DNA of 63,593 nucleotides, the filler included, from Aduncisulcus paluster (Eukaryota), in the NCBI GenBank assembly GCA_024181965.1. It is 8 parts of 8 records of this genome, joined end to end, with 100 filler letters (N's around TTAATTAATTAA, not from the genome) between each part and the next. Parts side by side here need not be neighbours in the genome. Positions count along the whole stretch, not along the records: positions 50,206 to 53,721 come from BQXS01011283.1; 7 more parts are not named here. One strand, 5' to 3'. A program made the position numbers and the translations under genes. The stretch's first letter is position 1; every line of letters starts with the position of its first letter. This document shows, one piece after another, positions 2,608 to 55,327 of this stretch. The notes beneath the pieces are model-generated. The model was given only the letters and a program-made list of their open reading frames with translations. It was not told the origin of the DNA and made no database searches.

Positions 2608-3631
2608 AAAATAACATGAAGAAGAGGAACGGGGGTAGAAGAAAAAAAGGTACGTCGTTATTAACCAACAAAAAGAAATAATAAGAATGAGAAATATTGG
2701 GGCAGTTAAAAAAGGAGATATGCAAATATAATATTGATTAATGTAGAGGGATATTATAAAACAAAGATTTAAAAATGTATTTGAAATATTTTGTTGCAAC
2801 AAGTATACTGTACTGTACTCTGCAATAAAACTGGAAATGATCATTCGCCAGATGGAATCGGATCTTTAACAAATCCAAGGGTCGGAGGCAACAAAGGATG
2901 AGATGTCAACGACATTCCACAAAAAGTAGAGGAGGGATTCGAAACGTGAGGAAACAGAAATGGAGAGACTGTGTTCCCGGCAGATTCTGAACCCATAAAA
3001 GACTCTGAATTGTATTGGCCAAAAATAGAACCAGTGGTTGATGAGGGGGGAGAAGTTGAAGCAAGTGAAGAAGAAGAAGAGATGTGATGCTGAGGGGGGA
3101 AAAGAGGAACTGGTGAGGGAAAATAACATGAAGAAGAGGAACGGGGGTAGAAGAAAAAAAGGTACGTCGTTATTAACCAACAAAAAGAAATAATAAGAAT
3201 GAGAAATATTGGGGCAGTTAAAAAAGGAGATATGCAAATATAATATTGATTAATGTAGAGGGATATTATAAAACAAAGATTTAAAAATGTATTTGAAATA
3301 TTTTGTTGCAACAAGTATACTGTACTGTACTCTGCAATAAAACTGGAAATGATCATTCGCCAGATGGAATCGGATCTTTAACAAATCCAAGGGTCGGAGG
3401 CAACAAAGGATGAGATGTCAACGACATTCCACAAAAAGTAGAGGAGGGATTCGAAACGTGAGGAAACAGAAATGGAGAGACTGTGTTCCCGGCAGATTCT
3501 GAACCCATAAAAGACTCTGAATTGTATTGGCCAAAAATAGAACCAGTGGTTGATGAGGGGGGAGAAGTTGAAGCAAGTGAAGAAGAAGAAGAGATGTGAT
3601 GCTGAGGGGGGAAAAGAGGAACTGGTGAGGG
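2608..3631. repeat. Tandem duplication of 512 bp (WRKY 3' end plus 3' flank), probably an assembly artefact
   Basis: About 2608-3119 matches about 3120-3631; duplicated ORFs in the track are offset by 512. Confidence 0.85.
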
Positions 3632-5146
3632 GAACAAGAATGAAGGAACAGAGAGCGAAGAAGAAATAGCTGAAGGAAAGAAAGATCCAGATTGTTCAAC
3701 AGGTTTGCTTGAATCCATTGGGGAAACTGGCGGAAATATGGGTGTTTCGGATTTCTTAGAGCCATGAGAACCGTTGAAAACAATATGGGGAGGGATTGAA
3801 ATATCATCCATAAACTGAGAGTTGGCGAGAGTTCGAGAGAAAGTGTGATCACGAAACACACCTTCATTGTCTCGAGAGTCTGGAAATGAGTATGAGCAAG
3901 ATGAAGAGTGTGATGCTGAAGAGGAGGAAGGATGGAGAAGCATGTGGGCTGGAGCTGAATCATCCAACTTCATAGGATCTCTACCAAATCCTCGCTCAAG
4001 GGCTTTCGTACACAACTGCATGAGAGGTACATCGGCGATAAGTGATTGATTGGCCGGATTCATATGCAAAGGTAGGTGGAATTCTTTTTCAGGCTTGGAA
4101 AGAGAGGATTTGACAAGGGGAGCAGAGGTGATGGGATTATGATGTGTTGTTGAACAGCAGGTGGATACACTATTGTCCATTTTATCATGTTTGGATTTTG
4201 AACGGCCTCTTCCTCGACCTCTTCCTCGACCTCTTCCACGGCCTCTTCCACTTCGCTTTCCTGCCCCCAAATTAATCTCAGAAGGTGGTTTATGAGCGTG
4301 AATTCCCTCATATATTACAGTAATAAAATTATAATTCGGATTTTGGGGGCGTAAGACTAGTTTCTTGGCTGTACATCCGGCAGCAGCACATTTATAGTAA
4401 CTTTTGGTCACTTTTCCTTTCTTCGACTTTTTTTGTCCATATTTCCTCCATACAAGTCCATCTAATACCATTGTTGGGGTAAACCCATTCATTCTAACAA
4501 TAAATTTTCGAGCCACAAGTTGAGCTTGGGAAGCTGTCTCTAAAAGAGGGTTTCCGATGGCAACATTGACGCCACTAAAATCAAGAATATTTCCTTTGCC
4601 ACAAGATGGGCCACAACATGAATCGTCACACCTACAAGGCTGGAATAGGGTGTGTTTCTTCAAAAGATCTAAGAATTCCTCCTCAGTTGTAACAGAAGAT
4701 CTAATCAGTAGTGGAGGAGGATGATTATGTTCATGTTTATATTCTACTCTTACTGCACCATCAACACTGGTTTTTATAACTAATTTTTTTGCTGGACATG
4801 TAGGTTCACTACATTGAAAGTAACAAGTTGGTAATTTTGATATTTTGCTATATTTTTGACCATATTTTCTCCATTTATAACCGTCATCAAGCTCATCTTC
4901 AAGAAAAAAAGTTGAAGATGATGATAATGAAGTTTCACGTGGTGGTGATGGTCGTTTTATAGTTGATGAACTCATAGAACAATCAACAACTGTTTGAAAT
5001 GATTGACTTATTGTCCTTCTCTTTAAAGAATCAGATGTATCGTTGGATGGAATGTAAATTTGTGATAACTCTTTGGATATAGGTTCGATTTGACAATGAT
5101 AAGAACTAACGTCAATTGATACATCAGTTCCTGAATTTTTTGTCAT
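3353..5146 (-). CDS. WRKY: WRKY transcription factor with two WRKY domains (group I-like)
   Basis: DDGYKWRKYGQK + CX4CX22HXH and LDGLVWRKYGQK + CX4CX24HXH; (GR)n basic tract; Ser/Pro-rich tail. Confidence 0.95.
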   Translation of the reverse strand: MTKNSGTDVSIDVSSYHCQIEPISKELSQIYIPSNDTSDSLKRRTISQSFQTVVDCSMSSSTIKRPSPPRETSLSSSSTFFLEDELDDGYKWRKYGQKYSKISKLPTCYFQCSEPTCPAKKLVIKTSVDGAVRVEYKHEHNHPPPLLIRSSVTTEEEFLDLLKKHTLFQPCRCDDSCCGPSCGKGNILDFSGVNVAIGNPLLETASQAQLVARKFIVRMNGFTPTMVLDGLVWRKYGQKKSKKGKVTKSYYKCAAAGCTAKKLVLRPQNPNYNFITVIYEGIHAHKPPSEINLGAGKRSGRGRGRGRGRGRGRGRSKSKHDKMDNSVSTCCSTTHHNPITSAPLVKSSLSKPEKEFHLPLHMNPANQSLIADVPLMQLCTKALERGFGRDPMKLDDSAPAHMLLHPSSSSASHSSSCSYSFPDSRDNEGVFRDHTFSRTLANSQFMDDISIPPHIVFNGSHGSKKSETPIFPPVSPMDSSKPVEQSGSFFPSAISSSLSVPSFLFPSPVPLFPPQHHISSSSSLASTSPPSSTTGSIFGQYNSESFMGSESAGNTVSPFLFPHVSNPSSTFCGMSLTSHPLLPPTLGFVKDPIPSGE

Positions 5147-14347: not shown

Positions 14348-17300
14348 TTACTCGTGGACAATACTTCTCCTCCTCCTGCGATGATGACCTGTGTAACTCT
14401 TATCCGAATAGTTCATCTTTGGGTCAAGTAATTGGATTCCTGGATCGACATCGAGGGTTGGAGAAGGAGAAGGACGGGAATGTGAGGCTCTTCGACTCCG
14501 ACGGTGTCCAGAGTCTTTAGCATGTCTCATTTTCTTTTCTTCACGAACGGGTGATATAGAGGGCTCATCAATGAGGTACATGCAACCGTCGTTAGTGACA
14601 ACAACACTAGCACGTCGGGAGAGAAGAGCAGAAGAGTGAGAGGAAGGGAGAGGGAGCAACTGAGGCGATGAAAAAGACGTTTCAAGCATTGAAGGTCGTC
14701 TTGATCGGTCAGCAGGAGACACACTTAACGTAGCTTTTTTAGATACAGTGCTAAGCGGAGAAATGTGTGATGCACGTCTCACAGGTGAAATATGGGAGGC
14801 TCTTCGATGTCCAGCTTCATATTGAATCGCTATAGACGCACGCCTTCCAGCGCTATCAGTGGAAATATACTGTGGAGAAGACAAATGATGACTCAAGGGG
14901 GAACGTCTGACAGAAACCATCTTTTTGCCTTGCAGAGCCTGTTGACGAGGAGATACCTTGACCTTTTGATTCCTTTTCCCTGCACCTTTCTTTTGTTTCT
15001 TTTTCTTTCCAGAACCACAACAAAGACAACAACAAAACAGAGGGATCAAGAATATAAATACGAATGCAATAATACAGACAATCCACATCTTAAGTGTAAA
15101 CACACCAAGAGATACATCCTTATTCATGAATACGATAATCCTTTCCCAGATATCCTTCTCATCATTATAATCGTTATTGTTATCATCATCGTTGCTATCG
15201 TCATCGTCCGAATAATCCCCAGACGCATATGCATCCACATCAAAGGAACAAAAGCCCCTCGAACATACACTGTAGCATTTGTCTGAAGTATTTCGCGAGA
15301 GGGTAACAACGGATGATAAGAAGAACGCACTGGTCTCACTGTTTTTAAACAAAAGTCGCACTTGCGACTCATCTGGAAAGAGAATTGACGAGAGAATCGA
15401 AGGAACAGAAAACGATGCTATAGTAATAGCCCCAGAAGAGCTATCGAGATCTACAGATCCCAACAAGGAAGCTGCTTGCCCAGTAACACTGTACGTCTCA
15501 TCGGCAGAACCAAGAACCAAATATACTTGATAGGAAACATCTGTTCCCATTGGTTCAACAAGGGAACAATCAGATATATTGTTGATATTGTTTTTGGTAT
15601 CATTTCTGTGTAAAACATTAGCACTCAACGACACATCCGTAGAATCATCAACAGAAGCAAATGTTTCAGTCACACGAATTGAGAATTCTTTACCAAGGAC
15701 TAGAGTACTGCCAAGGTCAGGCTGGAGGACCTTCTGGGTCTGACTGGAATTTAGTCTTCCGTATAGAGAAAGAGATATTGAAGATACAGTCACAAGAGAA
15801 AGTGAGGATGCAGAACCGAGTGCATCAGAACACTTTGAATCGCACCCACATTCAACTCTGACCACCCACCTTCCTCTTGAGTCTTCTCCATACATTCGAA
15901 GCGAGAACATGTTGCTAAGCGTCACAACGGAGGTCTCTTGGGTCAATTCAGCTGATGCTCGCCCGGATATAATTTCTGAAACGGTTCCAGACGGAGATAT
16001 TACCGTAAACGATAGATACTCCAAAGCAAGCGAATTATCCTTCGCCTCCTCTTCCAGGGCAATCTCAAGAGATAAAGAAACATATTCGATATCAAGGGAC
16101 TCAGTGACATCTAAATATAGATTGGAACCCATGGAATCAGTTGACATCGATATTGACAAATTTTGACCCGAAGAAGAGTTGATAACCTTTGTGAGAACAT
16201 CGGGTTCACCAAGAAGCTTAATTTGATCGTACTTATCAACATTATTATCCATGATATTCTCAAAATAATCGATCAGATCACCAGCGCGAATCATTCCAAA
16301 CCCATAGGATGAAGAATACGCAATTCCATTGGCATTTACACTCCATGTTGAGGAATCGGCATCAATCCGATATGATGAATGAGCCAATCCTCTAAAAATA
16401 TCACGAACACTGATATCATGGGACGAGTTTGAGTCGGAAATGGCTCCATACTTCGACAACAGCAAGGCAAGCACACCACTAACCTGTGGAGCTGCCGCTG
16501 AAGTCCCTCCAAATGTTATACAACTTTCAGATGAATCAGAGTATCCTGAATCAGTAGAATCGCCAAGATATAGAGCCTTGGCTGCTTGGATACCAGCAGT
16601 ATCTTCATCTAAGGAACACCCATCTAATACTGAACCTTCGCTTGGTGCACAGACAGTGACATTCTCACCAGGAGTCGAGTAATCCGTAATCACACCATTT
16701 GGAGCCACAGCACCAACAACAACACTGTACATATACACATCTTCATACAATAGAGTATTAGCACTCGCACTTTGTCCATCGTTCCCACTACTCCTGACAA
16801 AAAGGGTACCTTTACCATCCCTTCCAGTGGAAAACAGACAAGTATTCATGGCAGACTTGATCGAAGAATTGATAGTTTTGAGAGTAAAATCACCGGAAGA
16901 GAGAACGGAATTCCACGAGTGGGAGAATATATCAACGTATTCACACTCACCACATTGCGCATGCTGCAAATCCTCGGTGGTAGTAGAGGGTACTGAAGTC
17001 AAGTTACGCCCGGCAAATGTAGCATCAGGAGCAATTCCAAGTCCACATATACCATCATTTCCAATGGAAATTGACGCTACTGCTGTTCCATGAGTTGAAT
17101 CACACCATTTGGAGCCACAGCACCAACAACAACACTGTACATATACACATCTTCATACAATAGAGTATTAGCACTCGCACTTTGTCCATCGTTCCCACTA
17201 CTCCTGACAAAAAGGGTACCTTTACCATCCCTTCCAGTGGAAAACAGACAAGTATTCATGGCAGACTTGATCGAAGAATTGATAGTTTTGAGAGTAAAAT

Positions 17301-18323
17301 CACCGGAAGAGAGAACGGAATTCCACGAGTGGGAGAATATATCAACGTATTCACACTCACCACATTGCGCATGCTGCAAATCCTCGGTGGTAGTAGAGGG
17401 TACTGAAGTCAAGTTACGCCCGGCAAATGTAGCATCAGGAGCAATTCCAAGTCCACATATACCATCATAATCACACCATTTGGAGCCACAGCACCAACAA
17501 CAACACTGTACATATACACATCTTCATACAATAGAGTATTAGCACTCGCACTTTGTCCATCGTTCCCACTACTCCTGACAAAAAGGGTACCTTTACCATC
17601 CCTTCCAGTGGAAAACAGACAAGTATTCATGGCAGACTTGATCGAAGAATTGATAGTTTTGAGAGTAAAATCACCGGAAGAGAGAACGGAATTCCACGAG
17701 TGGGAGAATATATCAACGTATTCACACTCACCACATTGCGCATGCTGCAAATCCTCGGTGGTAGTAGAGGGTACTGAAGTCAAGTTACGCCCGGCAAATG
17801 TAGCATCAGGAGCAATTCCAAGTCCACATATACCATCATTTCCAATGGAAATTGACGCTACTGCTGTTCCATGAGTTGGAGAAGTGTCAGAAGAAATTCT
17901 ATCAGGAGGTTGATTTTCAAAGGAGGAAAGATAATAATTTGCTGATAAATAATATGAAGTTCCATCATCCGCGCTATCATTTCGTATTTGAGAAGCAATA
18001 TCTGGGTGAAAATAATCAATAGCCGAATCTGAGAAGACCATCATAACCCCATCACCAGAAAGTTCTTTATCCAGGGCGCTTTGAAGGTCAATATGAACAT
18101 TTTCATCAAAACAAGATGTATTGCCATTTCCGAAAAGGTGCCAAGTAACATCACTCGATTGATTGAGGGGCTGGATTTCATTATAGATTTTATCATCATA
18201 CAATGTATTTTTTGAAAGAGATGGGGATATTAATGACAGAATAATAAATGAAAACAGTAAAATAATAGAATAAATAGGCTGTAATTGAAGAATAAGTGGC
18301 TGAGATGTTTTAGAAACAGCCAT
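14348..18323 (-). CDS. Kexin/furin-like subtilisin proprotein convertase (S8 + P domain + TM), interrupted by duplicated segments
   Basis: Signal peptide; FSDSAID (Asp), THGTAVAS (His), SSGNDG (Asn), GGTSAAAPQVSG (Ser); P-domain YGEDSRGRW; TM then Cys cluster. Collapsing 781 nt of repeats gives one frame of about 1064 aa. Confidence 0.9.
16688..17877. repeat. Three overlapping copies of a 370-410 bp segment inside the convertase
   Basis: Identical ORF translations at offsets of 410 and 371. Confidence 0.85.
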
Positions 18324-46002: not shown

Positions 46003-49000
46003 TTATTCGTTAGATATTCTTTCAATTTGGGATTTAAGGATGGAACTGGTCGACGATAATTGAGAAATAATATCATCGCAAACATCGCGAATATAAGCAT
46101 CTATCTTATGTTCCTGAGCATCCCACCCAGTTCTTGTCTCTATTTGCTTCTTTGCCCTTTCAACGACAAAAACAACAACATCAGCTCCACGATCACTTTC
46201 TAACACCTCGACAATCCTTGTGGATTTGCAAACGGCCTGTAATATTTTGGTTGCTGGTAATGCAGTATTCGAGTTTGAGGAAATTTCAAGGAATACTGAA
46301 CAAAGTAAAACGTCAGGTTGTGACAAAAAGTGGGTTCGACCATTTGTTGTCGATACCAGCCTTGATAGAAGATGTAGTGACGATGATCTAGCCGTAATAA
46401 CCTCTTCTTTCTCCCTGAGGACAGATTTAATCATGATTGGACTCATACACTCATTCCCACTGATGCATGCGAATGAAGAAGAGAGAAGAGATATCCCGGC
46501 AAGAAGACCTCCCATGGATACGACAAGATCGCTTGAAGAAGCATGAGAAGAGGCAGATACAAGGCCTGTAGTCATAGAGAAGTGTGCAAGAGCATGGGAG
46601 AGAAGAGAAGGAGGGAGAAATGGCAATGGGAAGAAATTGGAGAGTTTATGAGTGACGACGGTCAGGTTGGACATGCAAGACACACAGGCACCAACAAGAC
46701 GGGTGAGTTTTTTGCGGTGAAGTTCAATATTACTGGGTGTCTCAACAGAGGTATGACCAGGCGTGGTTCCAGAGGAAAGTTGATCCTTTTGACTTTGATC
46801 CGAAGAGAGTGGAACAGAGCCCAGAGATTGTAGGAATAGTGGATTTGTGTCAAGGGAGTGTGACATTGAGTAGATAGGATACACCGCAAGTAGACACAAT
46901 GCTAGGAAAGGTGAAAATGACCGTGTTATCTTCTTTGCGGCAGAAGAGGCGAATTCACTTTCAAACCCAAGTTGAAGCTTCACAGTGTCCCCAGTGACTT
47001 TCATATTGGAGATAACTCTATCAATGTGCGTGTTATACTGCACAAATGTGAAGATGAGTTTGCTGAGAGAGACAGATAAGTCTCCACACACATATGAACA
47101 GCGAGAGAGGGAGGCCAACAATGGAGGAGAACGAGATAGGATGGAAAGGACATAGAGAATGTATTGAACTGCTCGATTGATTGGAATGGTACCTATATCA
47201 TCGTCAGGTTCAATAAAAACTGCACCCTGATCGTGTTCTTTGTCTTGGGATGATGAGTGTTTCTTCTCTGCAGCTTCACGAAGTTCCTGTGCTTTGTTAA
47301 GTTCTTTGATCCAATCCCCAATCACGGTGATCACAACGAAAGAAAAGGTGTGAACCAATGGAGTGTGACATAGTAAAGTCTCGAGGGAGGATGAATAACT
47401 CTTGGGAAGGGGAATGATAAGGGATGGAGTCATTAGGGGGAAAGAGGTTTTATGTTTAAGGGANNNNNNNNNNNNNNNNNNNNTCCTGTGCTTTGTTAAG
47501 TTCTTTGATCCAATCCCCAATCACGGTGATCACAACGAAAGAAAAGGTGTGAACCAATGGAGTGTGACATAGTAAAGTCTCGAGGGAGGATGAATAACTC
47601 TTGGGAAGGGGAATGATAAGGGATGGAGTCATTAGGGGGAAAGAGGTTTTATGTTTAAGGGATGAGAAACTTGATCCCATGCTAGTCAATTCCAGAGCAT
47701 CATTCTCAATGGAGACAGACAAATTATCATCTTGAACAGGAAGTTGATCTGGACTCCTAGGAGAAGCCGAGTCAATCCGTTTGGCTTGTTTAACGGAGCT
47801 AGAGTTGTTCAAGCAAGATGACATGACACAGAGTAACATTCGAAAGAGCTCGCCAACTTCTTCTGTCGTTCCTTGAACACACTCGACCCAGGATCTGTGA
47901 AGTACTCCCGCAAAGAATGCAGAGAAGATGGGAATAGGGAGAGTCGAAGTCGTTGAAAGAGAGGCCAACAAACGAAGGGCATACTTTACACGAGATCTTT
48001 CAACCGGATCCATCACGGAGACATGCCCTGGTCTGGATTTGTTGGCTTTTACAAGGTAAGATGGAGATGGAACAGCACGATGTTCAATACAATGTCTTGC
48101 AACAAGGCCATTTTTACCGACATCCATGAGTAATGTGCGATATTCATGATTTGTATTAATTGGGGTGTAAAGAGAAAGATTACATAGAACACGAAGACAC
48201 AAAACAAACAATTCACAACGACAGAGTGGAAGTTGGAGTATATCCTTGTCTGACGACAGTGGTCCTGGAGTGGCCTGTTCAGATTTCTTATATTTCTTCT
48301 TCATATCTTCCCTCTGTTTTAGGCTCTGACAATCGGTGTACGCATGGTTACAGATTGTTCTCACTCCATCAAGCCTGGCAATCTCATCCTTACATTTCTT
48401 TGGAACTGAAAGATTCACGAGAGCCGTTAATGAATGTTTTGTGATAGAAAATAGCATAGATGGGAATGAATTAGGTCTTGAGTGAGTTCCAACAACTCCA
48501 CCAACGGTCAAGGCTGATGCTGGCTTGGAAAGAGAAGAATCGCCCCCTTGCTTCATTGTTTCTTCTTCTGACTCCGATTTAATACTGGACATGTTGTGTG
48601 ACTCCTCTAATATCCATAAACATACTTGAATAGCTCCATTGAAACCAATTTGAGCACGTTTCTTGACATGATTCAATAAGAGAGCTGATACAAAGACAGA
48701 AACTCCTTCAAGAAGAATGACACGAGGGTCCATTCTCTTACTGCATACGAATACATCCACGTGTCCGAGTGGAGACTGTTTCTGAATTGATGGAATGATC
48801 GAATGGAACTGTTCAATAATGGAATTGAGATTATCAAACTTGCAACATGCCACAGATGTGCTGATAGCCTTCAAGATCCATCCACACACAGACAGAACAC
48901 ACGACATTGCTCTCGAATTCATAGGAGAGGGTTCGGAATGATTGGCAATCTGATCATCACCTTCTCTTTTGAGTTGTCCTGAAGGAATGGATGAAGAATA

Positions 49001-50205: not shown

Positions 50206-50384
50206 TGGAGCGAAGAAAAAGTTAGGGTGGATGTCTTCTCTCCAACCCATTTTAAGAAGGAAAGGGTGTCCATAGCATCTGGATATATATTTTTTCCGAC
50301 TCGAACCCTTTTGGGATCACACTGAATTCGGCCATCTCGTCGCTTTCTGGGCCGCCGGCTTCGTCCTTTAACACGAGAGCAGTG
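50206..50384. repeat. Direct copy of Fanzor segment 51243-51421
   Basis: 179 nt match at offset 1037, running into the contig end. Confidence 0.9.
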
Positions 50385-51069
50385 CCGGCAATAGCTCACC
50401 CTTATGACTGACAGTGTGACTTCTTTTCTCGATCTCAAGTAGCAGCTGTTTGATCTTATAAACGGATGGAAGGGTCATATCTTCAGCTTTTGCGGCACTG
50501 TAATACCTCTCATAGGTAGACATAGGTATTTGCCGGCTCATAACCGAGTGAATTATCTCATTTAACAAGAGATTATCGGTATGGGGATAGGGTGGCATCG
50601 ATGGGACAGGGCTTGGTTCATAGTGGAACAATGGTGGTTTTGGAGGCTCAAACTGTGGTGTAAACTCAGGCTCAAACACAGCTTCAGGCGAAAGACTACC
50701 TTCAAACATTGTGGCGCAAGTATGGAGATGATGGGGAAAAGTGGACGGTTGATCTATCTGAGAAGGAGGCAAGGATGGACCAACGAAAAGGCAACCACAA
50801 GAAGGGAAGAGAAAAAGAGGATACTGTATGCAACACCTATCGAGGCCAAGGTCGATAACTTGTAATCTTAAATAATGAAAACAAGTTTCTTGGCAATGCC
50901 AGGCATTAGGTGTGCGGGAACGGAAGGGGTATATCGGAATATGGCAGCGAGCACAATGGATCGAAGATATTGTCCCTGGAATGCTCTCTGCGTTTAGTAA
51001 TAGGGATTCTTCAGGGGGATAGACATCTGTAACCCCAGATTCATTGAAGTATTTAACGGCTTTGAAGAG
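50368..51069 (-). pseudogene. N-terminal fragment of a transposase related to the 41008-43337 family
   Basis: The frame is open from 51069 (longer than the track ORF). SIHCARCH..WHC and EIIHSVMSRQIPMSTYERYY..LPSVYKIK parallel FICQSCRK..FWK and LLIRKVIRREIPETLYTEIY..LPSIKRLK. Confidence 0.55.
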
Positions 51070-51147
51070 ACTACATTAAAGAAATAAGTAAGTCGATAAA
51101 ATAGATTTATAACACTCTGATAATGAGAAAAATTAACAAAGTGGTCC

Positions 51148-52590
51148 CTACAGTTCATCGACAGCTACAATATGATAAGTTCCATGGGGTAAAACAATAT
51201 TAATCGGTCCGCCAGTTGACCCGTGCCTTGTCGATAGTTCTTTGGAGCGAAGAAAAAGTTAGGGTGGATGTCTTCTCTCCAACCCATTTTAAGAAGGAAA
51301 GGGTGTCCATAGCATCTGGATATATATTTTTTCCGACTCGAACCCTTTTGGGATCACACTGAATTCGGCCATCTCGTCGCTTTCTGGGCCGCCGGCTTCG
51401 TCCTTTAACACGAGAGCAGTGTCAGCAATGACAGCTCTGCCAGGGTCAACCCCGAGGCATAATGTAGATGCAGCCTGCACGGAGACGGGGGTGGGAGAGG
51501 AATCCAGGCTTGTAGTCTGCTTGGGGGTGGGAGAGGAAATTAGGCTTGAAAGTGAGGTTTTGTAAATATCCGAGGTTTTTGGCCCCATAACGAGGCGAGC
51601 ACCAACTCCATCGGTTAAAACATAGACGAGCCCCTTGGATTTTCCCCTTTTTAATGTTTTTCGGAGCAAGCTTAGTCCGTATGTTGAAAAGAGATTATTT
51701 TTGGCAGCATTGAGGAGCGAATGAGACAGAGGGAAGAACCTCATCCCGGACTTTGAAGTAGGGAGGATCGGTGGAAGTCTTGGAGGAAGCTTGGGTCTGA
51801 GGCTTAATTGATCATCAATCGGATTGTCAGCAATCAATTGGCCTATCACATTCAATTGGGTCGATATATTTCTTATGGCTGAAAAACCGTTTTTGCATCG
51901 GTCGAGCTTTAGTATATCGCGCCCATAGCGCTGTAATCTTTTTTTATATTTTGGGATGGCTTCAGAGACCCATTGTAACGTGGAAACGGCCATTTGATCG
52001 GCCCAGAAGACAATCGCATCGCTTAAATTATGGGTTGTTCCATAATTCTTTGGGTCGGACCACGACAGTGGGCACAGACTTCCTTTGATTTCTCTACCCC
52101 TCTTCGTTGTGTGAGGTTTTAATATACAACAACAACATTCATCAATTTTTTCCTGTAATGGGAGGGGGAATCCCTTTCTGAGTTTTGGCCGGTTTTGGCC
52201 CGAAGGGGTCGGTAGTCTGTTGCCAAAGAGGGCGTCGCAACATGAGAGGTAAAACTTTGGGGTATACACCCACCTCGTATATTTGTCGGCCATTGAGCCA
52301 GCAACCACGTTTGCTACCAGAGAAGATAGTCTGGTGCAGCGATTCGCTGACAGACATTCCTCTTCGATTCTTTTAAGGTACTGGGGATTAATTATCCGCC
52401 TTATACCGCATTTTATGGTTAGATAGTTTTCTGCTGGGCCTGGATCTACTTCTGGGAGGTGGGGTTCATCGTGATCATCATGTTCAACAAGTTGTTGATG
52501 ATGTCGTCGCTCTGGTATATCGTCCCCATCCCAAATCTTTCCTGATATGTTCAAATTGATCTCTTGTACACATTGATCCGAGCTGATCAC
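51148..52590 (-). pseudogene. Fanzor1 (eukaryotic TnpB-family RNA-guided nuclease), degenerate and truncated
   Basis: TIKC..IEEECLSANR..LVAN; ILP..RFFPL; VLTDGVG; RuvC-I LGVDPGR (51439-51453). In the same frame, after two stops, HGSTGGP..IVAVDE (RuvC-II-like, VDE at 51154-51162). Confidence 0.75.
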
Positions 52591-53423
52591 ATGTTTCTTT
52601 ATGTAACGTATTTCATTAAGGTATCATGATTAGTCTTCTATGTCTCCGAAAGGTGCTGATCATGCCAAGCACATGAAAAAACGCGTTTGGATCTATCCCG
52701 CAATGAGAGGAGAAGTGAAGCTGAATCATCCAAAGGAAGCAATTTCTTCCGATGGTTCATCATTGAATCATGCAGGATTGAATTGAAATTCGAAAAGAGA
52801 ATTTGAAACAAATAAGATGTATGAAGATGAAGTGTTTCACATAGTTCATTCAGAAATCAATCATTGGTTGGTTCGTCGGGAATCATATCCCTGACCTTAA
52901 CCCTCTCGTGTATTTCTTCATCAGGAAGGCCTTCTTCCTTTAATCTTCTGCTGAAAACACCAGGCCATTTTCAGTGGCGCCAATAAGGGATCCAGAGTAT
53001 CGCTTTGGTTCTTAAGAACCTTTACCAGAGAGACATTATACCAGATGACTTGTCCCGATAACATCTCAATGTCATACTCCCAAAACAGCCAAGAATACGA
53101 ACTCGTTTTGAGGTATCAATCCAAGAGAGAGTGTAAATAGCAGATTTCAATATGATCGTCAAAGACAATTCCAATTTGCTCTTCCAAAATGTCCTCCACA
53201 GGGAAACTTTTTTTCGAGAATCCCAACTCAGTTTCAGATTTCGGCAAAAAAATCTCCCAAGTCAGATTTCAAAATGATATCAATTTTGAATCAAAAGTAT
53301 ATCATAAATAAAATATTTAATAATATAACCTTATAAAACTTAATACTTTATTTTTTTCCTTTAAATAACAATATATACTTTCTAATATGGCCACAAAAAC
53401 TACTATCATTTTTGTATAAGAAA

Positions 53424-53721
53424 ATGGAAACGACTCATCATCAGCAACTCGTTAAGGTCAATAAGAACCTAAAAAGGGTCTATCAGTTAACAAAACGTAG
53501 GTTTTCTCAGATGGACACAATGATCCAGTCCACTATTCCAGCCCTCATAACTGGAGAGTTAACTGTTACTGCTGAGAACCTCGAAGCCTTCCTATCCACT
53601 GCTAAATCCTTCTTCACAAGCATCGAGCTCACTTCCAAAAAGATTGCTGTGAGATTACTCGATGCCCTCTGTCAGTATGAGTATGATAGAAAAGACGTGA
53701 AAAACAACCGCAGGTTGCCTG
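53424..53721 (+). CDS. Hypothetical protein, 3' truncated (possibly transposon-derived)
   Basis: Open frame to the contig end; no recognised motif. Confidence 0.4.
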
Positions 53722-53821
53722 NNNNNNNNNNNNNNNNNNNNNNNNNNNNNNNNNNNNNNNNNNNNTTAATTAATTAANNNNNNNNNNNNNNNNNNNNNNN
53801 NNNNNNNNNNNNNNNNNNNNN

Positions 53822-55327
53822 CATGAAAAATTGACAGAATCAGAATTTGTGAAGCTTGCGGCTGAGCGTGATCAACTCGATACTCAACGCGAAGCCATCG
53901 CATCTGAGCGCGATCAACTCGATACTCAACGCGAAGCCATCGCATCTGAGCGCGATCAACTCGATACTCAACGCGAAGCCATCGCATCTGAGCGTGATCA
54001 ACTCGATACTCAACGCGAAGCCATCGCATCTGAGCGTGATCAACTCGATACTCAACGCGAAGCCATCGCATCTGAGCGCGATCAACTTGCTAAAAGTTTG
54101 AAAGAACTTGAAATGGAACGCGCGAGTGTCACTGATTCTCAAAGAGTTCTTAAAGATGAACGAGAGCGTATTGAATCGCTTCAAAAACATCTTGAGGAAG
54201 AACAACGCCGCATTCACTCAACTGTTGAACAACAATGCGCAGCCTTGGAGGAATCTCTTGAAACACAGTTTGCTAAGGAAAAGTCTGCATTTGAGACCGA
54301 AATCGAGGAGTTGCATATTTTGTTAGCTAAAAAAGATGAAAAATTAAAACAAATTGATCTTAGAGATGAAGAAAATTCTCGAATGTTGGAAGAGAAGGAG
54401 AAAAGGCGTGAAAAAGATGATATTCGACGGAAACAAGAAGAGGATAGGGCTCTCCAAGCATTGTATACTCGTCTTGAAGATGAAAGGAAGACTTTGGAAG
54501 AGGAAAGATTGAGGCTTTCGAAGGAGAAGGAAATTTTGGCAATTGAAATGAAGAAGAGGAAAGAGGAAAACGAAGCTAAAGCTCTCGAATTATCGCAGAT
54601 TGAACATTATTTGCAATTGGAAAAGAAATCTCTTACGAAAGAAGACAAACATGAAACAAAGAAAATTGATCATGATAATACACCATCAAAACAATCTCAA
54701 CCTTTAAACCCGGAATTATTAGCAGATATTCGTATTTTGCACACCCAATTGCGTTCTTTGGATGTAGACCCATCCGAAAGAGTGGAATCTGTTGGTTCTT
54801 CATCTCCTTGTTCATCCTCCTCTTCCTTAAGCTCTTCTCAAATTCGAACCAAAGCTGTTTCTCTTCTTCGCAGAGCACATTCAAAGGCATCATATATAGA
54901 AAAAGATGCTCAAAAAGCGGCTCAAATCCGTGCAAACAAAATTATTCGAAATGCTGAAAAAAGACGCGATTGCATTATTGAAGAATATAAAGCTGAAGCA
55001 AAGGAATTAGCAAATGATATCATGAAAAAAATAATTGTCGACGCAAGGGCGAGTGCTGATGAAATACTTCAGCAGGCGCAACTAATGCGAACCAAGATCA
55101 AAGAGGAGCTCAAGAAAGAGATTCGGGAAAAAACTGGAGAAGAGGCTTCTTTAATGTCTTTAGATAGTTTTGGTGGCGAATATACCAAATTAAAATCGTC
55201 AGAAAATCAAGATATTTCGAAAGAAAGAAAATATACCATAAAAGAAACATTATTTCAACCCGATTATTTTATTCATAAAGATTTTCATTCGCCTCCAGTT
55301 TCTCCAAGGCATGAATATCATCAATGA
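53822..55327 (+). CDS. Coiled-coil protein, 5' truncated
   Basis: E/K/R-rich heptads; frame open from the contig start. Confidence 0.8.
   Translation, partial: HEKLTESEFVKLAAERDQLDTQREAIASERDQLDTQREAIASERDQLDTQREAIASERDQLDTQREAIASERDQLDTQREAIASERDQLAKSLKELEMERASVTDSQRVLKDERERIESLQKHLEEEQRRIHSTVEQQCAALEESLETQFAKEKSAFETEIEELHILLAKKDEKLKQIDLRDEENSRMLEEKEKRREKDDIRRKQEEDRALQALYTRLEDERKTLEEERLRLSKEKEILAIEMKKRKEENEAKALELSQIEHYLQLEKKSLTKEDKHETKKIDHDNTPSKQSQPLNPELLADIRILHTQLRSLDVDPSERVESVGSSSPCSSSSSLSSSQIRTKAVSLLRRAHSKASYIEKDAQKAAQIRANKIIRNAEKRRDCIIEEYKAEAKELANDIMKKIIVDARASADEILQQAQLMRTKIKEELKKEIREKTGEEASLMSLDSFGGEYTKLKSSENQDISKERKYTIKETLFQPDYFIHKDFHSPPVSPRHEYHQ
53862..54087 (+). repeat. 42-nt coding tandem repeat (ERDQLDTQREAIAS x5 plus partial)
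   Basis: Directly visible; units differ only at CGT/CGC. Confidence 0.95.

Follow-up and report, generated by a model that had tools for sequence, protein, structure and literature searches.

In a 63,593-base stretch of DNA from the protist Aduncisulcus paluster (hereafter the window), a minus-strand frame at 51289–52623 is, with a probability of about 0.85, a truncated and non-functional member of a multi-copy Fanzor-like gene family of this organism. TnpB is a transposon-borne nuclease that takes its guide from an omega-RNA; Fanzors are its homologues in eukaryotes and, to our knowledge, the only RNA-guided DNA nucleases native to them. Homology of the frame to a longer paralogue, the point at which that homology breaks off, the presence of the broken junction in sequencing reads, and complete paralogues in which every catalytic motif is kept were each observed. 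The window copy appears to keep about the first 430 codons of the gene, comprising a conserved N-terminal extension, a presumed WED/REC region with a TDG motif, and the DPG motif of RuvC-I. It appears to lack an ATG at the conserved start and, after ...VIPKG, runs into unrelated, partly duplicated sequence; the alternative glutamate of RuvC-II, the zinc finger, RuvC-III and any 3' omega-RNA are missing from it. Because the nuclease half and the 3' end are missing, such a copy could neither cut DNA nor supply a guide.

The 444-codon frame and its paralogues

Direct translation of the minus strand placed TIKC at 52408–52419 and TDGV at 51604–51615, and ANR..VAN, ILPTSKSGMRFFPL and VLTDGVG all fell within the single stop-free frame at 51289–52623. 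A word-indexed search of 5.8 billion proteins with this frame as query yielded three matches: P0001 (575 aa, 99% identity), which is the spliced model that the source itself gives for the locus; P0002, a paralogue of 559 aa (81% identity); and P0003, a fragment. Residues 1–331 of P0002 aligned to the window in tblastn at 81.1% identity over 334 columns (E 1.9e-160), and BLASTP of the window frame against P0002 gave 82% over 332 columns. An exhaustive HMMER search of 1.84 billion representative proteins, for which the query was the window frame, retrieved five proteins, P0005 among them, every one named A. paluster by the source; no relative of the N-terminal half outside A. paluster was detected in that set. 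The features of the frame are as follows, P0004 and P0005 being further A. paluster models described below.

51289–52623, minus strand: N-terminal fragment of a Fanzor-like gene; 444-codon stop-to-stop frame, the end coordinate including the stop.
52294–52512, minus strand: N-terminal extension, codons 38–110, including TIKCGIRRIINPQYLKRIEEEC; lies 5' of the ATG in the source gene models and is common to the partial model P0004; its variants fall mostly at third codon positions.
52293 to about 51337–51343, minus strand: homology to residues 1–331 of P0002, ending ...EFSVIPKG(FE).
51607–51615, minus strand: TDG motif (in VLTDGVG), 56 residues N-terminal of DPG; kept in the 38%-identical P0005.
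51436–51453, minus strand: GVDPGR (of LGVDPGR), presumed RuvC-I, with the presumed catalytic Asp codon at 51445–51447; homologous to GIDPGR of P0002.

The only catalytic motif remaining in the window copy is GVDPGR, presumed to be that of RuvC-I. Its DPG is a published hallmark of Fanzors (PMC10711439). Its equivalence to the catalytic Asp of TnpB is presumed from spacing and from a low-confidence hhalign extension. TDG, described as characteristic of the WED domain of Fanzor1 (PMC10711439), lies 52–56 residues N-terminal of DPG in P0002, P0009, P0010, P0005 and the window frame, and its placement in a WED fold is likewise presumed.

The earliest ATG of the frame is codon 111 (MADKY), at which the source models start. 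P0004 aligns to query residues 38–268 at 81% and begins MKRRHHQQ, at a place where the window reads PERRHHQQ. Since the extension upstream of the annotated ATG is shared with P0004 and varies mostly synonymously (see below), the family protein probably starts about 75 codons upstream of MADKY, at an ATG that is missing from the window copy; as the variant positions are not independent, this is suggestive. Existing gene models of the family are imperfect: they probably start about 75 codons late, and P0001 is a chimera whose splicing passes over stops.

The 90% cluster of P0002 comprises four members on four contigs (559, 560, 458 and, partial, 263 aa) that are 94–95% identical, each retaining every motif that falls within its own length. 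P0009 and P0002 are full length and P0010, of 458 aa, has a complete C-terminal half; all three bear the automatic UniRef label 'Cas12f1-like TNB domain-containing protein'. The contigs on which the intact copies are recorded measure 18,657, 5,396 and 14,428 nt. A more distant model from a different contig, P0005 (252 aa, 38% identity), keeps ILPTS, TDG and GVDPGR, and the conservation of these motifs at such a distance points to a second, older lineage of the family. On another contig, P0006 (565 aa) is a patchwork model that combines a GIDPGR of its own, close to residue 113, with a stretch resembling P0002 (..NRKKVLTLSLNRLNLPQLRTPNTEVLKE). Rearranged pieces of the family seem to be strewn through the A. 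paluster genome.

Assembled contigs of two public sequencing runs, X1 and X2 (the latter only guessed to be RNA), were placed on the locus. Contig pieces of 85–100% identity were stacked on 51386–52565, numbering 128 in X1 and 84 in X2; those of X1 comprised 51 at 99% or more, 17 at 95–99%, 48 at 90–95% and 12 below 90%. This pile-up indicates a multi-copy family, the summed contig depth not being equal to copy number, as the tool warns. The table of variants among these contigs gave 40 positions, with 74 more beyond them. Among the 39 listed positions that are in frame, 18 were synonymous, against 23% expected (binomial p 0.0012), and their distribution over the three codon positions was 13/5/21; in codons 60–93, upstream of the annotated ATG, synonymous changes accounted for 7 of 9. 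The excess of synonymous changes among the listed variants suggests that the family diverged under coding constraint.

Much of what the earlier note had proposed on these matters was borne out. The motif series that it described does lie in one minus-strand frame, and the tblastn alignment with P0002 takes it beyond chance; the probable metamonad host agrees with the source naming of the matching proteins; and the intact copies that it expected elsewhere in the genome exist, at the level of gene models, as P0002, P0009 and P0010. Its view that this copy is dead was upheld by the missing ATG at the conserved start and the absent nuclease half, and its GxDPG motif of RuvC-I by the homology of GVDPGR to the GIDPGR of P0002 and by the published standing of DPG. 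Its placing of TIKC, ANR..VAN and ILP..FFPL in the WED/REC region is presumptive.

The break in homology and the sequence downstream

Downstream of the break, towards lower coordinates on the minus strand, the following features were recorded.

51243–51429, minus strand: copy A of a direct repeat, R, 187 nt; holds the last ~90 nt of the Fanzor homology and the first ~95 nt of unrelated sequence.
50206–50392, minus strand: copy B of R, at the contig end; a second Fanzor fragment (P0002 residues 302–331), then the same unrelated sequence.
51148–51291, minus strand: same-frame stretch after the stop, ..GGP..IVAVDE; no homology to the nuclease half.
50368–51075, minus strand: open frame of 235 codons; no recognisable family; joined to the Fanzor fragment by splicing in P0001.
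50881–50967, minus strand: zinc-finger-like SS-x2-CxxC-x16-CxxxC, within the 235-codon frame; the layout of the P0002 finger, with no RD.
50206–53721: the 3,516-bp contig that carries the Fanzor-like fragment, bounded by 100-nt N44-TTAATTAATTAA-N44 linkers; the contig recorded for P0001 likewise measures 3516 nt.

Copies A and B of R are 99% identical over 187 nt and, as copy A spans the end of the Fanzor homology, the repeat contains the truncation junction itself. In X1 an exact unitig at 51172–51391 crosses the junction at a depth of 2342, the exact unitigs on its flanks having depths of 1201–1243, and the same stretch is an exact 250-nt contig in X2. The junction at about 51337–51343 thus lies inside one exact unitig, which places it in the reads themselves at about twice the single-copy depth; the scaffolder did not create it.

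No other part of the 63.6-kb window matched residues 332–559 of P0002 in tblastn at E≤1, and a phmmer run at maximum sensitivity over the six-frame pieces of the contig gave a best E of 0.34, the pieces concerned being unrelated and upstream. In the same frame, past two stops, the sequence reads ...HGSTGGPINIVLPHGTYHIVAVDEL*, with VDE at 51154–51162 and a stop at 51148–51150. The earlier note had taken this G..GGP..IVAVDE stretch as RuvC-II. The stretch is present, but its Smith–Waterman score against the C-terminal half of P0002 was 18, a value reached by 498 of 500 shuffles (shuffle mean 24.7), and 51148–51291 was not among the phmmer --max matches listed. Since homology stops about 60 codons before it and nothing downstream matches the nuclease half, IVAVDE was rejected as a remnant of RuvC-II. 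The alternative glutamate of RuvC-II is therefore absent from the window, the VDE at 51154–51162 being non-homologous.

The 235-codon frame was considered as a diverged nuclease half and rejected: its Smith–Waterman score was reached by 47 of 500 shuffles, it gave no phmmer support and matched nothing in Pfam, NCBIfam or PHROGs, and in the ESM Atlas its best score was 0.77 and its recognition fell short of the threshold. The two remaining reading frames, aligned with the C-terminal half of P0002, were equalled or beaten by 438 and 305 of 500 shuffles. The zinc-finger-like pattern occurs once in the six frames of the contig, and 3 of 1000 simulated contigs gave one, the pattern having been chosen post hoc, after it was noticed. 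It had no profile match and no similarity to the P0002 finger beyond the cysteines; its origin may be chance, or a TNB domain so far diverged that only this remnant is left. The area around it, 50678–51031, also has variant contigs of ~90% identity in the reads. An Rfam scan of the contig returned a single match, at E 0.64, which was taken as chance.

Relationship of the family to Fanzor and TnpB

The placement of the family with TnpB and Fanzor, as the earlier note had proposed, was sustained by its complete members. Residues 459–520 of P0002 matched PF07282 (Cas12f1-like TNB, OrfB zinc-ribbon) at E 2.3e-9, with 37.7 bits against a cut-off of 26.3. P0002 also matched phrog_506 'transposase' (E 2e-10) and, over positions 331–388 of 389 only, NF040570 guided_TnpB (E 1e-7, 31.6 bits against a whole-protein cut-off of 100). 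When compared by hhalign with a TnpB profile made from a 70-sequence alignment of cyanobacterial and phage TnpBs, P0002 reached a probability of 91.6% (E 8e-7, core residues 447–533), against 1% or less for shuffled P0002 controls (10 shuffles per setting). A query made from the family alignment, in which the C-terminal columns were lost, gave 0.7%. No Pfam family was found in the window frame (even at E≤10), in P0001 or in the downstream 235-aa frame. The profile check suggested in the earlier note thus came out in favour of P0002, with the window frame remaining at shuffle level.

The arrangement of catalytic motifs was then compared with published descriptions. Yoon et al. (PMC10711439) give two 'molecular fingerprints' of Fanzors in RuvC, the DPG of RuvC-I and an alternative glutamate that precedes the zinc finger by six residues, a combination present in <1% of TnpB-family homologues. 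P0002, P0009 and P0010 have DPG followed, after 177–178 residues, by E-x6-CxxC-x15-Cx(2,3)C-x6-D, with the alternative glutamate six residues before the finger (VDE-YHTSKL-CPYC) and TDG 54 residues ahead of DPG; the window frame has the DPG (GVDPGR). At the place of the canonical glutamate the three paralogues read ..LLAYGD.., which fits the replacement of the canonical RuvC-II Glu by Gly or Pro that Jiang et al. report (PMC10530073). When the hhalign alignment of P0002 was extended under permissive settings, its GIDPG came to stand opposite GiDxG of TnpB, with low-to-middling confidence. The motif of Bao and Jurka, D-X(125,275)-[TS][TS]-X-X-C4 finger-X(5,50)-RD (PMC3627910), is complete in P0002 (D296, TS 479–480, finger 483–506, RD 512–513) and occurs in no frame of the contig at 50206–53721. 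The assignment to Fanzor1 made by the earlier note stands as far as the DPG and TDG motifs carry it, and the subtype may be named on these motifs only.

On the model of characterised Fanzors (PMC10432273, PMC10530073), the intact paralogues most likely are RNA-guided double-strand DNA endonucleases that aid the persistence of a transposon. They would bind RNA transcribed from their own 3' end and cut double-stranded DNA beside a short target-adjacent motif, through a RuvC site formed by D296, E476 and D513; such cutting would favour the retention or spread of the transposon that carries them.

Compared with Fanzor1 (SpuFz1 of Spizellomyces punctatus; PMC10432273, PMC10711439), the intact paralogues share the RuvC-I DPG, the Glu six residues before a C4 finger, and then RD. 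Further likenesses are the TDG ~55 residues before DPG, a long N-terminal half unlike TnpB, a length of ~560 aa or more against ~600 aa for the most compact Fanzor1s (PMC10711439), and a multi-copy family in a eukaryotic genome. They differ in a DPG-to-E spacing of 177–178 against the published 120–160 (PMC10711439), and the window copy differs in being a front half only. With P0002 as the phmmer query, the full set of PDB chains yielded no Fanzor at either E≤1 or E≤10, only chance matches (acid phosphatase, L35). The same RuvC arrangement of DPG and alternative glutamate is found in Fanzor2 and the 'pro-Fanzor' TnpBs of IS607 (e.g. ApmFz2). Fanzor2s closely resemble TnpB (PMC10711439); by contrast, the protist family is detectably TnpB-like in its last ~85 residues only.

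With prokaryotic TnpBs (IS200/IS605; Nodularia phage and cyanobacterial), P0002 shares the TNB zinc-ribbon and the RuvC-III region, and its residues 392–524 gave 27% identity to the Nodularia phage TnpB in tblastn (E 0.04). At RuvC-I those TnpBs read D-hydrophobic-G, and their glutamate is the canonical one (..FVEDI..), some ~50 residues ahead of the finger, whereas the protist family has DPG at RuvC-I, ..AYGD.. at the canonical place and E476 beside the finger. In the ESM Atlas the nearest neighbours of P0002 were clusters of Nucleocytoviricota with PF07282 and PF26935 (DUF8286), at a score of 0.98 and 209 of 256 features, and 22 of its 30 matches carry this pair of families. The affinity is a lead only, coming from language-model features and not from an alignment; no PF26935 was found in P0002 in a Pfam scan at E≤1. 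A word-based search with P0002 residues 295–559 kept 3 of 1528 candidates, all from A. paluster, and among the 26 candidates found with residues 425–535 only P0002 itself was retained. One viral-contig scan and two metagenome scans yielded no relatives.

Alternative explanations

Several points weigh against the window copy being a dead member of a Fanzor-like family. For a dead gene, 444 codons free of stops make a long run, which a recent copy could nevertheless show. The hhalign probability of the window frame, or of residues 1–340 of P0002, against the TnpB profile was 0.1–0.5%, inside the shuffle range; as the N-terminal half has no TnpB similarity of its own, the link of the window copy to Fanzor comes wholly through its paralogues. 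In these, a Glu (E435) also lies near the canonical RuvC-II position of P0002, and the strict pattern of Yoon et al., DPG-x(120,160)-E-x6-CxxC-x(12,18)-CxxC-x(4,8)-D (PMC10711439), was found in 0 of 11 sequences tested and in no paralogue, because the DPG-to-E spacing of 177–178 exceeds 160 and two copies have CxxxC. An AlphaFold2 model of P0002 built from a 5-sequence alignment had a mean predicted local distance difference test score of 38.2 and a predicted template modelling score of 0.21. The test of synonymous change spans 39 of 113 variant positions, which are mutually non-independent. Finally, it is not certain which N-terminal variant belongs to the truncated junction, given a short-read, fragmented assembly and the many variant contigs over 51386–52565.

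This last point leads to the possibility that the truncation is merely apparent, the assembler having mis-joined members of a repeat family so that the true copy is a complete Fanzor gene. The contig terminates inside R, which is present twice, 51386–51857 is covered by many variant contigs, and the draft assembly is in 25,863 contigs with an N50 of 4.6 kb (PMC9933649). The switch to unrelated sequence nevertheless falls within the exact unitig at ~2x depth in X1 and within the exact 250-nt contig of X2. The truncated junction is thus apparently in two copies in the reads, and only the assignment of the upstream variant is open to mis-joining, which makes this explanation very unlikely. A live spliced gene as modelled in P0001, in which a domesticated, RNA- or DNA-binding front half of a Fanzor is fused to a new C-terminus, is slightly less probable still. 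It would account for the 444-codon stop-free frame with an ATG at codon 111 and for the spliced model produced by the gene predictor, and contigs of X2, which may be RNA, cover the locus. Splice joints, however, were reported in neither X1 nor X2, and the 250-nt X2 contig passes unspliced through the first predicted intron of P0001, so that the spliced model is unsupported. The C-terminal 258 residues that P0001 adds match no family in Pfam, NCBIfam or PHROGs, the 235-residue frame that makes up their bulk is unrecognisable in the ESM Atlas, and this 'C-terminus' is in part duplicated Fanzor scrap in another frame; the conserved N-terminal extension, moreover, has no start codon here.

Least probable of all, and only barely credible, is that the family is foreign, food bacteria or another contaminant of the culture having supplied a TnpB-like gene of bacterial or viral origin. 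The culture of A. paluster did hold food bacteria, and decontamination was light, only hits of >95% identity having been removed (PMC9933649); the nearest ESM Atlas clusters, as noted, are mostly Nucleocytoviricota. Set against this, all five proteins found among 1.84 billion representatives are named A. paluster, and the two metagenome scans and the viral scan gave no relative. In GC content, and in the depth of ~1200 at which its exact single-copy unitigs stand, the locus matches other contigs in the window, which encode WRKY, WD40, leucine-rich-repeat (LRR) and subtilase proteins, and DPG with the alternative glutamate is as rare among TnpB-family homologues (PMC10711439) as stated above. 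An origin of the family from an integrated giant virus is possible. The favoured account of the locus remains that of a dead, truncated member of a multi-copy Fanzor-like family.

Host range and significance

A. paluster is a free-living fornicate of the Metamonada with a short-read, highly fragmented draft genome of 29.4 Mb and 39.1% GC (PMC9933649). Literature joining Fanzor with metamonad, Excavat or Giardia was searched for and none was found. Fanzor together with Trichomonas gave nothing relevant, the sole co-mention being apparently unrelated by its title and abstract, and Fanzor together with Aduncisulcus was not among the matches listed. The main texts of four core Fanzor papers contain no Trichomonas, Giardia, metamonad or Excavat; their supplementary host tables may contain these proteins, and Saito et al. 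mined NCBI nr with PF07282 (PMC10432273).

The family is real and of a kind already known, its intact copies are already labelled automatically by UniRef, and the window copy is an ordinary relic. A bolder reading, to which we would give somewhat less than an even chance, is that of a recently active, lineage-specific Fanzor1-like family, which would be the first on record for Metamonada, perhaps obtained by way of a giant virus, and the source of a new compact RNA-guided nuclease; it counts on at least three near-identical complete gene models, the second lineage at 38% identity and the many fragments. Fanzors are under development as compact genome editors. Their occurrence in an anaerobic fornicate flagellate would widen their known host range to Metamonada and would offer a very divergent N-terminal architecture for comparison with SpuFz1-type enzymes. 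The window copy, as a relic, adds little in itself; its value is as a pointer to P0002, P0009 and P0010.

Other features of the window

The linker map divides the 63,593 bases into 14 pieces separated by 13 N gaps across 11035–59432; 7 of the 13 joints are 100-nt linkers of the kind that bounds the contig at 50206–53721, and the other 6 are 20-N gaps. The stretches flanking this contig are unlinked contigs, and gene neighbourhood across the linkers is therefore meaningless. Near the other end of the same contig, at 53156–53273, the summed contig depth in X1 rises to 27,283, against ~1,200 in single-copy flanks, which points to a short, very high-copy repeat; an exact unitig at 53198–53721 has ~4x depth.

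On other contigs, a minus-strand frame at 3356–5146 (597 aa) encodes two WRKY DNA-binding domains (PF03106, E 2.3e-34), and subtilase pieces (14351–16849; 17412–18323), a WD40 protein, an LRR protein and an iron alcohol dehydrogenase are also encoded in the window. A 179-nt stretch is duplicated with 100% identity on either side of a 20-N gap (47285–47463; 47484–47662), which has the look of a scaffold gap whose overlapping ends were never joined, and not of biology. At 53820–54134, a 42-nt unit is repeated six times in tandem, 97–98% identical in its core and encoding 14-residue repeats; these units open a Glu/Lys-rich plus-strand frame of 517 codons at 53774–55327, which has no Pfam family.

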